A model generated the notes under the pieces. The model was given only the letters and a program-made list of their open reading frames with translations, was not told the DNA's origin and ran no database searches. The position numbers and the translations under genes were made by a program. 64,000 bases of DNA from Escherichia coli (GTDB lineage Bacteria > Pseudomonadota > Gammaproteobacteria > Enterobacterales > Enterobacteriaceae): assembly GCF_003334315.1 (NCBI RefSeq), contig NZ_QOWR01000005.1, one strand, 5' to 3'. Shown piece by piece: positions 28,736 to 59,732 of the stretch. Position 1 is the stretch's first letter, and each line of letters begins with the position of its first letter.

Positions 28736-28816
28736 GCCTGATAAGACGCGTGAGCGTCGCATCAGGCATCGTTCACCATTGCCGGATGCGGCGTGAACGC
28801 CTTATCCGGCCTACGG
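28736..28816. repeat. REP/BIME elements (two units)
   Basis: gcctgataagacgcgtgagcgtcgcatcaggc and gccggatgcggcgtgaacgccttatccggcctacgg. Confidence 0.85.
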
Positions 28817-45736: not shown

Positions 45737-45764
45737 CGCTTACCCTGAATATTCAGGGTAAGCG
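45737..45764 (+). terminator. perfect 28-bp palindrome downstream of maeB (probable terminator hairpin, or operator)
   Basis: cgcttaccctgaat|attcagggtaagcg, perfect 14-bp arms, 19 nt after the maeB stop, followed only by gttt. Confidence 0.5.
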
Positions 45765-49316: not shown

Positions 49317-49354
49317 ACGGTCCCGTTCTGGACCCTGATAAAGAGGAAAGCACA

Positions 49355-49648
49355 ATGGAAGCATTAGGAATGATCGAAACCCGGGGCCTGGTTGCACTGA
49401 TTGAGGCTTCTGACGCGATGGTGAAAGCTGCGCGCGTCAAGCTGGTTGGTGTTAAGCAGATTGGCGGCGGCCTGTGTACTGCCATGGTTCGTGGTGATGT
49501 TGCAGCCTGTAAAGCCGCGACCGATGCAGGTGCCGCAGCGGCACAGCGTATCGGCGAGCTGGTATCTGTACACGTTATCCCGCGTCCGCACGGCGACCTG
49601 GAAGAAGTCTTCCCGATCGGCCTGAAAGGCGATAGCAGCAACCTGTAA
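49355..49648 (+). CDS. eutM: BMC major shell protein EutM
   Basis: 97 codons from ATG 49355: [49 protein letters not shown]...; SD aagagg upstream. Confidence 0.95.
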
Positions 49649-49754
49649 TCACCCTGTGTGACGTCGATTCGGGCGTCACGCTCTCTCCTTTTTCATTTTA
49701 CCTTCTGCGGAGGGTAGGGGGAGCTTTTACCTGAAATACGCCACGGAGGCGGGT

Positions 49755-50042
49755 ATGAAACTGGCAGTCGTCACTGGACAAATTGTTTGTACCGTACGCC
49801 ATCACGGACTGGCGCATGACAAATTGCTGATGGTGGAAATGATTGATCCACAAGGTAATCCTGACGGGCAATGCGCCGTCGCCATCGACAATATTGGCGC
49901 GGGAACCGGGGAGTGGGTGTTACTGGTGAGTGGCAGTTCCGCCCGCCAGGCGCATAAAAGCGAAACGTCACCGGTCGATCTGTGCGTGATTGGCATTGTC
50001 GATGAGGTGGTGTCTGGCGGTCAGGTAATTTTCCACAAATAA
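49755..50042 (+). CDS. eutN: BMC vertex protein EutN
   Basis: 95-codon ORF MKLAVVTGQIVCTVRHHGLAHDKLLMVEMIDPQGNPDGQCAVAIDNIGAG... Confidence 0.94.
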   Translation: MKLAVVTGQIVCTVRHHGLAHDKLLMVEMIDPQGNPDGQCAVAIDNIGAGTGEWVLLVSGSSARQAHKSETSPVDLCVIGIVDEVVSGGQVIFHK

Positions 50043-53481: not shown

Positions 53482-53483
53482 AT

Positions 53484-53567
<84 letters not shown>

Positions 53568-53597
53568 ATAAATAACAACTAACAGGGAGTAAAGGCG

Positions 53598-54824: not shown

Positions 54825-56224
54825 ACACTCGCCAGCTATTGAGCGTCGGTATCGATATCGGCACCACCACCACCCAGGTGATTTTCTCCCGGCTGGAGCT
54901 GGTTAACCGTGCGGCGGTGTCGCAGGTGCCGCGCTACGAATTCATTAAACGCGAAATTAGCTGGCAAAGTCCGGTGTTCTTTACCCCTGTCGATAAACAG
55001 GGCGGTTTAAAAGAAGCGGAACTGAAAACCTTAATACTCGAGCAATATCATGCTGCGGGTATTGAGCCGGAAAGCGTTGATTCTGGTGCCATCATCATCA
55101 CCGGTGAAAGCGCGAAAACCCGCAATGCTCGCCCGGCGGTGATGGCGCTCTCTCAGTCGCTGGGCGATTTTGTCGTTGCCAGCGCCGGGCCGCACCTCGA
55201 ATCCGTGATCGCCGGTCACGGAGCCGGGGCACAAACCCTTTCTGAACAACGGCTGTGTCGGGTACTGAATATCGACATCGGCGGTGGCACCGCGAACTAC
55301 GCCCTGTTCGATGCCGGAAAAATCAGCGGCACTGCCTGCCTCAACGTCGGTGGTCGCCTGCTGGAAACCGACAGCCACGGGCGCGTGGTTTACGCTCATA
55401 AACCGGGGCAGATGATTGTGGATGAGTGCTTCGGTGCAGGCACTGACGCCCGTTCGCTGACCGGCGCGCAGCTGGTGCAGGTTACCCGGCGGATGGCGGC
55501 GCTGATTGTCGAAGTGATTGACGGAACGCTTTCGCCGCTCGCGCAGGCATTGATGCAAACCGGTTTGCTGCCCGCAGGTGTTACGCCCGAAATCATTACG
55601 CTTTCTGGAGGCGTGGGCGAATGTTATCGCCACCAGCCCGCCGACCCGTTCTGTTTTGCCGATATTGGCCCACTTCTGGCAACGGCGCTGCATGACCATC
55701 CGCGCCTGCGTGAGATGAATGTGCAGTTTCTGGCGCAAACCGTACGCGCCACGGTGATTGGCGCGGGTGCACATACCCTTTCGCTCTCTGGCAGCACAAT
55801 CTGGCTGGAGGGCGTACAACTGCCGCTGCGCAATTTGCCGGTGGCGATCCCGATTGATGAAACGGATCTGGTGAGTGCCTGGCAACAGGCGCTGCTTCAG
55901 CTGGATCTTGATCCCAAAACTGACGCGTACGTGCTGGCGCTTCCCGCCTCGCTGCCTGTGCGTTACGCCGCGGTACTGACGGTCATCAACGCGCTGGTCG
56001 ATTTCGTCGCGCGTTTTCCGAATCCGCATCCCCTGCTGGTGGTGGCCGGGCAGGACTTTGGTAAAGCTCTGGGCATGTTGTTGCGCCCACAGCTACAACA
56101 ACTCCCGTTGGCAGTCATTGACGAAGTGATTGTCCGCGCGGGGGACTATATCGACATTGGTACGCCTCTTTTTGGCGGATCGGTTGTGCCGGTGACGGTG
56201 AAATCACTCGCATTTCCTTCCTGA
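54821..56224 (+). CDS. eutA: ethanolamine ammonia-lyase reactivase EutA
   Basis: 467-codon ORF MNTRQLLSVGIDIGTTTTQVIFSRLELVNRAAVSQVPRYEFIKREISW...; GTGA overlap with eutH. Confidence 0.95.
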   Translation: MNTRQLLSVGIDIGTTTTQVIFSRLELVNRAAVSQVPRYEFIKREISWQSPVFFTPVDKQGGLKEAELKTLILEQYHAAGIEPESVDSGAIIITGESAKTRNARPAVMALSQSLGDFVVASAGPHLESVIAGHGAGAQTLSEQRLCRVLNIDIGGGTANYALFDAGKISGTACLNVGGRLLETDSHGRVVYAHKPGQMIVDECFGAGTDARSLTGAQLVQVTRRMAALIVEVIDGTLSPLAQALMQTGLLPAGVTPEIITLSGGVGECYRHQPADPFCFADIGPLLATALHDHPRLREMNVQFLAQTVRATVIGAGAHTLSLSGSTIWLEGVQLPLRNLPVAIPIDETDLVSAWQQALLQLDLDPKTDAYVLALPASLPVRYAAVLTVINALVDFVARFPNPHPLLVVAGQDFGKALGMLLRPQLQQLPLAVIDEVIVRAGDYIDIGTPLFGGSVVPVTVKSLAFPS

Positions 56225-56235
56225 GGGAACGACTT

Positions 56236-57597
56236 ATGAAACTAAAGACCACATTGTTCGGCAATGTATATCAGTTTAAGGATGTAAAAGAGGTGCTGGC
56301 TAAAGCCAACGAACTGCGTTCGGGGGATGTGCTGGCGGGCGTTGCAGCGGCAAGCTCACAGGAGCGCGTGGCGGCAAAGCAGGTGTTGTCGGAAATGACC
56401 GTAGCGGACATCCGCAATAATCCGGTGATTGCCTATGAAGATGACTGCGTGACGCGGCTGATTCAGGACGACGTTAACGAAACGGCCTACAACCAGATTA
56501 AAAACTGGAGCATCAGCGAACTGCGTGAGTATGTGCTGAGCGATGAAACCAGCGTGGACGACATTGCCTTTACCCGCAAAGGGCTGACCTCGGAAGTGGT
56601 CGCGGCGGTAGCGAAGATTTGCTCCAACGCGGACCTGATCTACGGCGCGAAGAAAATGCCGGTAATCAAAAAGGCCAATACCACCATCGGTATTCCGGGC
56701 ACCTTTAGCGCCCGTTTGCAGCCGAACGATACCCGTGACGACGTGCAAAGTATCGCTGCGCAAATCTATGAAGGGCTTTCCTTTGGGGTGGGCGATGCGG
56801 TGATCGGCGTTAACCCGGTAACTGACGACGTGGAAAACTTAAGCCGCGTGCTGGATACCATTTATGGCGTGATCGACAAATTCAACATCCCAACTCAGGG
56901 CTGCGTACTGGCGCACGTCACCACCCAGATCGAAGCGATTCGTCGCGGCGCGCCTGGCGGACTGATTTTCCAGAGTATCTGTGGCAGCGAAAAAGGGCTG
57001 AAAGAGTTTGGCGTGGAACTGGCGATGCTCGACGAAGCGCGCGCAGTGGGCGCAGAGTTCAATCGTATCGCCGGGGAAAACTGCCTCTACTTCGAAACCG
57101 GACAAGGCTCTGCGCTATCCGCTGGCGCTAACTTCGGCGCTGACCAGGTGACGATGGAAGCACGTAACTATGGGCTGGCGCGTCATTACGATCCGTTTAT
57201 CGTCAACACCGTGGTCGGCTTTATTGGGCCGGAGTATCTCTACAACGACCGCCAGATTATCCGTGCTGGCTTAGAAGATCACTTTATGGGCAAGCTGAGC
57301 GGCATCTCTATGGGCTGTGACTGCTGCTACACCAACCACGCTGACGCTGACCAGAACCTCAACGAAAACCTGATGATCCTGCTCGCCACCGCAGGCTGCA
57401 ACTACATCATGGGGATGCCGCTGGGTGATGACATCATGCTCAACTACCAGACCACCGCATTCCACGATACCGCCACTGTGCGTCAGTTACTCAACCTGCG
57501 TCCGTCACCGGAGTTTGAACGCTGGCTGGAAAGCATGGGCATTATGGCAAACGGTCGCCTGACCAAACGGGCGGGCGATCCGTCACTGTTCTTCTGA
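56236..57597 (+). CDS. eutB: ethanolamine ammonia-lyase large subunit
   Basis: 453-codon ORF MKLKTTLFGNVYQFKDVKEVLAKANELRSGDVLAGVAAASSQERVAAKQ...; starts 12 nt after eutA stop. Confidence 0.96.
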   Translation: MKLKTTLFGNVYQFKDVKEVLAKANELRSGDVLAGVAAASSQERVAAKQVLSEMTVADIRNNPVIAYEDDCVTRLIQDDVNETAYNQIKNWSISELREYVLSDETSVDDIAFTRKGLTSEVVAAVAKICSNADLIYGAKKMPVIKKANTTIGIPGTFSARLQPNDTRDDVQSIAAQIYEGLSFGVGDAVIGVNPVTDDVENLSRVLDTIYGVIDKFNIPTQGCVLAHVTTQIEAIRRGAPGGLIFQSICGSEKGLKEFGVELAMLDEARAVGAEFNRIAGENCLYFETGQGSALSAGANFGADQVTMEARNYGLARHYDPFIVNTVVGFIGPEYLYNDRQIIRAGLEDHFMGKLSGISMGCDCCYTNHADADQNLNENLMILLATAGCNYIMGMPLGDDIMLNYQTTAFHDTATVRQLLNLRPSPEFERWLESMGIMANGRLTKRAGDPSLFF

Positions 57598-59687: not shown

Positions 59688-59732
59688 CCTGTCGGAGGTG
59701 CCGGGTGTCCTACAACACCCGGCATTAACATC

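Follow-up and report, generated by a model that had tools for sequence, protein, structure and literature searches.

Stable stem-loops that bound stabilised operon segments at their 3' end are a documented and conserved mechanism in E. coli. Intercistronic protective hairpins of this kind are known from operons whose parts decay differentially, such as the REP between malE and malF and the hairpins of men, pap and puf (Dar & Sorek 2018, PMC5927463). REPs are barriers to ribonucleolytic degradation and sometimes attenuators (PMC12306157; for decay barriers also PMC5927463). According to the summary that PMC12306157 gives of the work of Liang, Rudd & Deutscher (2015), REPs at fewer than 16 nt from a stop codon make ribosomes stall and reduce translation. 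Being silent in standard media, the eut operon is missing from the genome-wide surveys. Microcompartment shells contain roughly a hundred hexamer subunits per pentamer subunit. In the Eut system the two genes concerned, eutM and eutN, lie side by side in the same operon, and how the ratio of hexamers to pentamers is set matters for the engineering of Eut shells as nanoreactors. Here, we describe the spacer between these genes as a conserved RNA module made of a first hairpin after the eutM stop codon, a second hairpin formed from the pyrimidine tail of the first, an A/U-rich linker and the eutN ribosome-binding site. The structure was previously unannotated and is of a known general kind.

The window, by which we mean the whole stretch of 64,000 nt of E. 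coli DNA that was analysed, contains the eut operon from eutS (about 46012) to eutR (60785) without interruption by a prophage. At the eutA-eutB junction (56224-56236) the gap is 11 nt long and the prophage is absent, hence the operon is intact in the window. Many E. coli chromosomes match the 721 bases across eutM-eutN with 100% identity, and 5409 of 5426 complete genomes contain this stretch. RefSeq names the two genes eutM and eutN in identical E. coli sequences and carries no annotation for the spacer. A few gaps in the operon are long, i.e. eutD-eutM (38 nt), eutK-eutR (45 nt), eutM-eutN (106 nt) and eutG-eutH (116 nt), and the remaining junctions mostly overlap or are short (9-20 nt, the majority 12 nt or less). 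An earlier sequence-only reading of this DNA had called the eutM-eutN gap the longest in the first half of the operon. This is correct, since the eutG-eutH gap falls past the midpoint. The latter (53482-53597), the longest of the operon, contains a canonical REP hairpin at 53537-53566 and is a second structured intercistronic spacer. In the eutK-eutR spacer, immediately before eutR, GGTGCCGGGTGTCCTACAACACCCGGCATT (59697-59726) forms a very stable hairpin (-20.7 kcal/mol). The coordinates of the features at the eutM-eutN junction are collected in Table 1.

Table 1. Genes, predicted RNA structures and signals at the eutM-eutN junction, in window coordinates.
Feature	Position	Strand	Remarks
eutM CDS	49355..49648	+	major hexameric shell protein, 97 aa; stop TAA 49646-49648
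eutM-eutN spacer	49649-49754	+	106 nt
hairpin 1	49656..49681	+	10-bp stem 49656-49665 / 49672-49681, 6-nt loop GATTCG
pyrimidine/U-rich tract TCTCTCCTTTTTCATTTTA	49682..49700	+	weak terminator-like tail of hairpin 1; also 5' arm and bulge of hairpin 2
hairpin 2	49683..49723	+	outer stem, 9-nt U-rich bulge, inner stem, loop TGCG
linker CTTTTACCTGAAATACGCCAC (CUUUUACCUGAAAUACGCCAC)	49724..49744	+	predicted unpaired; from invariant columns and fold
eutN Shine-Dalgarno GGAGG	49745..49749	+	5 nt before ATG; conserved in all three spacer classes
eutN CDS	49755..50042	+	pentameric vertex protein, 95 aa

Hairpin 1 begins 7 nt past the eutM stop codon. The sequence-only reading had described it as an 8-bp stem. 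The core arms do pair as it said, GTGACGTC (49658-49665) with a partner at 49672-49679, but the 3' arm reads GGCGTCAC rather than GACGTCAC, which introduces one G.U wobble. Two extra pairs lengthen this core to a 10-bp stem in which six pairs are G-C. The predicted energy is -17.4 kcal/mol in a 46-nt context and -16.2 kcal/mol for the bare hairpin, against -6.7 +/- 2.3 kcal/mol for dinucleotide shuffles, none of which was as good (0/200, z -4.7). The hairpin is retained in both the MFE and the centroid folds of a 501-nt context. Equally stable 30-nt windows make up 0.1% of the plus strand of the 64-kb window, i.e. 20 sites, among which are three REPs and two canonical terminators. The window has a single occurrence of GTGACGYC-N4-30-GRCGTCAC, where none is expected. 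The hairpin is thus real and non-random.

Downstream of hairpin 1 lies cctttttcatttta (49687-49700), whose T5 run (49689-49693) starts 8 nt beyond the 10-bp stem, with TCTCTCC between the two. The remark of the sequence-only reading that the U-tract is not adjacent to the stem is therefore accurate. In fact, the U-run which it took for a terminator tail is the bulge of a second hairpin that it missed. The outer stem of hairpin 2 pairs CTCTCCT with GGGGGAG, the 9-nt bulge spans 49690-49698, and the inner stem (49699-49705 / 49710-49716) pairs UACCUUC with GAGGGUA. Its predicted energy is -17.3 kcal/mol (z -2.9), and that of the entire spacer is -43 kcal/mol (z -3.2). The eutN initiation region shows no significant structure (z +0.47). 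Within the linker, TA(C/T)CTGAA (49728-49735) does not vary in any spacer of the E. coli or Buttiauxella type. The sequence G(C/G)↓TTTT just past hairpin 2 would fit the RNase E motif RN↓WUU (as defined in PMC5927463) and is a candidate cleavage site. A perfect 22-bp palindrome upstream of the operon, TTACCCTGAATATTCAGGGTAA (45741-45762), includes ACCCTGAA, which is similar to the invariant ACCTGAA of the linker. It lies past the stop codon of the upstream gene, about 250 nt before eutS, and is probably the terminator of that gene.

Several other roles for the spacer were considered and set aside. In the E. coli MFE fold the bases just past the eutM stop codon pair over a long range with the eutN Shine-Dalgarno sequence, but this helix is absent from the consensus structure of 21 sequences. 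Pairing of the 5' arm of hairpin 1 with eutN codons 5-7 (GTCGTCAC) was rejected, as the coding sequence is equally conserved in REP-type species that lack the arm. So was a small ORF in the spacer (GTG-initiated, 19 codons), which has no Shine-Dalgarno sequence and whose frame is shifted by loop indels. A scan of both strands of the spacer for sigma-70-like promoters found none. The sole promoter-like feature is a lone TAAAAT on the minus strand, which is not conserved in Citrobacter. The covariance models of Rfam 15 gave no match between 48500 and 51000 on either strand, up to E = 10. GGA, as in CsrA-type sites, is kept by the spacers of E. coli type, whereas those of Buttiauxella type do not all have it, and we can only speculate that such sites operate in the spacer.

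To place this spacer among its relatives we scanned one genome per species. The scan gave 48 EutN-encoding loci, 42 of which have eutM directly upstream, and with the window this makes 43 spacers. All of them are at least 52 nt long and fold better than shuffled sequences (class medians z -2 to -3). The architecture found in E. coli (class A) is shared by Escherichia, the C. freundii complex, two further Citrobacter lineages and K. spallanzanii. Hairpin 1 is kept in Buttiauxella, Entomohabitans and Yokenella (class B). The first two of these also keep TA(C/T)CTGAA with a different second hairpin, and the spacer of Yokenella contains the hairpin alone. In class C, which comprises 15 lineages of Enterobacteriaceae including Salmonella, Klebsiella, C. 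koseri, C. amalonaticus, C. sedlakii, Pseudocitrobacter and Pluralibacter, the spacer is filled instead by one or two REPs of the same type as the REPs of the window (at 28781, 40096 and 53537). Other GC-rich structures occupy the spacer in Intestinirhabdus, Pseudomonas and two Rhodocyclales. In every lineage with hairpin 1 the stem starts 5-9 nt past the stop codon. A pattern scan of metagenomes for Buttiauxella-like spacers gave 10 matches, which we attribute to chance because none encodes EutM or EutN. Finally, K. spallanzanii has an E. coli-type spacer together with an E. coli-like eutM 3' end, whereas its relatives of the oxytoca group are of REP type. This suggests that this part of the operon has been exchanged by recombination or horizontally.

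The pairing itself is preserved by selection. The hairpin-1 core GTGACGYC/GRCGTCAC is common to Escherichia, the C. freundii complex, K. spallanzanii, Buttiauxella and Entomohabitans. In an alignment of 21 class A and class B sequences, from which Yokenella was left out, seven of its eight pairs are invariant and the remaining one (pair 7) is C-G, U.G or U-A. In Yokenella the outermost core pair has changed from G-C to A-U in a compensatory manner (ATGACGCC/GGCGTCAT). The loop varies from 4 to 22 nt, with sequences unrelated between lineages. A stem that is kept while its loop varies in length points to RNA folding, not to a dimeric DNA-binding site of fixed spacing. Binding sites of this kind (CRP-like TGTGA...TCAC or a TGACGTCA palindrome) were rejected, the distance between the arms changing from 4 to 22 nt between species. 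Compensatory changes are also found in both stems of hairpin 2 (A-U to G-C, C-G to U-A, U.G to C-G or G-C). When the 25 pairs of hairpins 1 and 2 and of a small helix around the eutN start codon are counted together, 96.7% of the cells are paired and 10 pairs show changes on both sides. None of 500 shuffles, and no slid control, came close to this.

The spacer also evolves far more slowly than 4-fold degenerate sites. E. coli and the C. freundii complex agree at 51-57% of the 4-fold sites of eutM, eutN and eutE, whereas their spacers are 83-86% identical overall and 92-95% identical from the end of hairpin 1 to the Shine-Dalgarno sequence (Fisher p = 3.5e-8 and 6.5e-11). Comparisons of E. coli with Citrobacter or Klebsiella give identities of 0.80-0.83 for the spacer, 0.92 from hairpin 1 to the Shine-Dalgarno sequence and 0.54-0.60 at 4-fold sites (p = 6e-5 to 6.5e-11). 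Against divergent Escherichia there are 0-2 differences in the spacer, for about 15% divergence at 4-fold sites (p about 1e-5, two lineages tested). The rare changes within Escherichia affect either of the two loops or the G-run. Two E. coli lineages, O157:H7 EDL933 among them, have lost one pair in the outer stem of hairpin 2 through a base change. The hairpin is under selection: its stem is kept across genera, base changes preserve pairing, and the spacer changes much less than 4-fold sites. The unpaired tail and linker (CTCTCTCCTTTT, AGGGGGAG, GTTTTACCTGAAA) are almost invariant, a degree of conservation that a barrier hairpin does not need, and REP-type species do without these segments. 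Beyond the spacer, the synonymous sites of the first ~15 codons of eutN (49755-49800) are almost invariant across genera, including those of REP type, against an identity of about 54% at 4-fold sites elsewhere. The region where eutN translation starts thus seems to be constrained.

How does this module compare with the described systems? Like the 3' hairpins of Dar & Sorek, hairpin 1 is stable and marks the 3' boundary of the gene whose product must be most abundant in a polycistronic operon, it is conserved between related species and it lacks a strong terminator tail. Unlike them, as they lie mostly inside the downstream coding sequence, it sits in a dedicated spacer and is known here from sequence and folding. 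A further difference is that the eut element comes with another hairpin and with an unpaired linker that is highly conserved. With REP/BIME elements it shares a GC-rich hairpin just past a stop codon between co-transcribed genes, and REPs fill the very same spacer in Salmonella, Klebsiella and several Citrobacter. Yet, its arms GTGACGTC...GGCGTCAC do not match the REP consensus GCCGGATG...CTTATCCGGC seen in the three REPs of the window. Furthermore, the spacer is single-copy in the 5408 of 5426 E. coli genomes that contain it (4398 records at 99% identity or more). A second copy was found neither by pattern search nor with covariance model R1, built from the spacer, in 177 kb comprising the window and the related loci. 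An origin as a repeat or mobile element was therefore discarded and, being single-copy and devoid of the REP consensus, the eut hairpin is not a REP. Our literature search found no paper linking eutM to a stem-loop, a REP or a terminator.

Protein levels put further bounds on what the spacer may do. In E. coli grown on ethanolamine and B12, and relative to EutQ set at 100, proteomics gives 96 for EutM, 39 for EutL, 37 for EutB, 27 for EutE, 24 for EutC, 11 for EutS, 10 for EutD, 8 for EutK and 1 for EutN, the iBAQ values being imprecise for a protein of 95 aa such as EutN (PMC11334477). EutM is thus far above EutN (96 vs 1, PMC11334477), as the sequence-only reading had expected. Its explanation, in which the hairpin lowers eutN specifically, does not agree with the same data. 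Polarity would hit all distal genes, yet EutE, EutB and EutL are 27-39 times as abundant as EutN, and eutE starts only 11 nt past eutN. The low level of EutN cannot be due to polarity at the hairpin, which at most plays a part in the roughly 3-fold excess of EutM over the distal proteins. The Term-seq tables of Adams et al. (2021, supplementary file 1), which are for uninduced K-12 where eut is not expressed, show no sense-strand 3' end in the spacer. The same tables contain one 3' end antisense to eutM, at window position 49578 on the minus strand.

A partial terminator was one half of the proposal of the sequence-only reading, the other half being an mRNA-stabilising hairpin, with which the reading that we favour below agrees. 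We scored the hairpin and its tail with the discriminant d of d'Aubenton-Carafa (1990), whose absolute values are approximate here. With 10 bp, six G-C pairs, a 6-nt loop and -16 to -17 kcal/mol, the stem and loop fall within the range of intrinsic terminators, which have a GC-rich stem of about 5-14 bp and a loop of 3-8 nt, and like in terminators and leaky attenuators a pyrimidine/U-rich stretch follows on the coding strand. Here, however, the U-run is set off by TCTCTCC and the tail pairs into hairpin 2. The tail TCTCTCCTTTTTCAT has 4 U in its first 8 nt and its T5 run only from +8, which gives a tail score of 3.15 and a d of about +0.6, at or just over the classical threshold under the approximate formula, when the canonical-looking terminators of the window reach +11 and +26. 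In relatives d is -21 to -40 (C. freundii complex), -20 (Yokenella, which has no U-rich tail) and -1 to -10 (other lineages), B. noackiae alone being clearly positive (+20.6). Terminator features are thus not retained at orthologous positions in the lineages with hairpin 1. What is conserved is the hairpin, not the terminator property, and the claim of a partial terminator is not supported.

A leaky intrinsic terminator would still be compatible with a decay barrier, since terminated RNAs would end in the same hairpin. Some RNA polymerases would then stop at hairpin 1 and its tail, and eutN and the distal genes would be transcribed less than eutSPQTDM. The site ranks first in a simple terminator scan of the 10-kb region (10 pairs, 6 G-C, tail TCTCTCCTTT), and the REP/BIME elements that fill this spacer elsewhere have been reported as transcription attenuators (PMC12306157). 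Nevertheless, the proximal U-tract is poor, d is negative in most relatives although the hairpin is conserved, and the distal EutE, EutB and EutL are abundant when compared with EutD, encoded upstream. Moreover, eutR is at the distal end of the operon and presumably needed for eut induction, in which case read-through is required. We regard termination here as improbable. Control or insulation specific to eutN translation seems to us unlikely too, if slightly less so. In this alternative the long structured gap would prevent ribosomes leaving eutM from re-initiating, and a factor (the ribosome or S1, RNase E, an sRNA, or a protein such as CsrA or Hfq) would set EutN very low by means of hairpin 2, the Shine-Dalgarno-like GGAGGG and GGGGGAG, the anti-Shine-Dalgarno-like CTCTCTCCTTTT and the invariant TACCTGAA linker. 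EutN at about 1% of EutM, with EutE at 27 just downstream, means that the deficit is specific to eutN. The strong conservation of the unpaired segments between genera, with TA(C/T)CTGAA invariant even where the sequence of hairpin 2 differs, the quasi-invariant first codons of eutN and the minimal length of 52 nt in all sampled loci go in the same direction. On the other hand, eutN has a strong Shine-Dalgarno sequence (GGAGG-N5-ATG) in an unstructured initiation region, and REP-type species have the same signal and start region without hairpin 2 and linker, so that the module is dispensable. The lack of an Rfam family, the absence of the helix between spacer start and Shine-Dalgarno sequence from the consensus, and the imprecision of iBAQ for so small a protein also count against it.

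We tentatively favour a reading of the spacer as an intercistronic protective or insulating RNA structure for eutM, and not as a terminator, which is quite possible, if short of probable. RNA polymerase would mostly read through the spacer. The polycistronic mRNA would then be cut downstream, plausibly in the linker, or end by occasional termination at the weak tail. Hairpin 1, helped by hairpin 2, would block 3'-to-5' exonucleases, the upstream segment ending with eutM would outlast the distal part, and EutM would be raised relative to the downstream genes. The long structured gap would also uncouple the translation of eutN from the heavy ribosome traffic on eutM, with no re-initiation at eutN by ribosomes leaving eutM. 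Such protective stem-loops are stable structures placed at the 3' boundary of an abundant cistron within an operon and conserved in relatives, and this is what we find. The hairpin is stable and non-random, its stem is kept with a variable loop and covarying pairs in a slowly evolving spacer, and it starts at a near-constant distance from the stop codon. All 43 spacers are long and structured in an operon whose other junctions are mostly short, documented decay barriers fill the same spacer in 15 lineages, and EutM is the most abundant shell protein, well above EutD upstream and EutE downstream. The reading has its difficulties. Translation alone can set protein ratios, a barrier hairpin does not require an unpaired tail and linker that are 92-95% conserved, and a pair of the outer stem of hairpin 2 is broken in lineages such as O157:H7 EDL933. 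REPs may also accumulate in any long spacer, which would make their presence weaker evidence than it appears. Protection of eutM relative to upstream genes (EutD 10 vs EutM 96) needs in addition 5' processing, for which the only candidate is a small hairpin without covariation at 49319-49334.

This small hairpin, GGTCC-CGTTCT-GGACC, lies in the eutD-eutM spacer between the eutD stop codon and the eutM Shine-Dalgarno sequence, and its sequence is retained in nearly all Enterobacteriaceae loci, including those of REP type. It could bracket eutM from the 5' side as a protective partner. We did not retain it as such: its sequence is conserved, but thermodynamics and covariation give it almost no support.

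The protective structure has also to be set against two much less probable readings. If hairpin 1 behaved like stop-proximal REPs, as these are summarised in PMC12306157, it would stall terminating ribosomes and lower EutM. Its constant position 5-9 nt past the eutM stop codon, 7 nt in E. coli, is within the 16 nt reported for REPs. Yet, EutM is still the most abundant shell protein, lowering the major shell protein misfits the required stoichiometry, and the REP of several REP-type species is at about 20-27 nt from the stop codon. We consider this the least probable of all. Hardly more probable is that the spacer has no present function, being a leftover inverted repeat in a tolerant region or a sequence that serves the antisense strand. 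The module is lost or replaced in many lineages, an IS911 sits in the spacer of one E. coli strain, and the antisense 3' end of uninduced K-12 is close by. But purifying selection relative to 4-fold sites is strong, covariation upholds the pairing, nearly all E. coli genomes have the spacer, and the minus strand offers as promoter-like feature only the TAAAAT that is not conserved in Citrobacter. In our assessment a barrier is thus a serious possibility and leaky termination and translational control of eutN are each unlikely, and these three are not mutually exclusive.

If the spacer is a decay barrier only, it is one more example of a well-known class of elements for the fine-tuning of operons. 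The structure as such merits modest follow-up and will not surprise specialists. The near-invariant unpaired parts and the low level of EutN, about 1% of EutM despite a strong Shine-Dalgarno sequence and an open initiation region, leave room for more. One might speculate, without rating this as likely, that the E. coli/C. freundii-type spacer is an undescribed cis-regulatory RNA motif of ~100 nt which, recognised by a trans-acting factor or an RNase, would set EutM:EutN at about 100:1, REPs being its convergent replacement elsewhere. Its parts may include the two hairpins, the anti-Shine-Dalgarno-like CUCUCUCCUUUU, the Shine-Dalgarno-like purine decoys and the invariant UACCUGAA linker. In any case, a conserved RNA module at the eutM-eutN junction, in whose place other genera have REPs, offers a concrete candidate control point that can be mutated. 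A natural disruption exists in E. coli strain 90-1 (L049 2580-3858), where the IS911 lies inside the spacer, in the linker just past hairpin 2.
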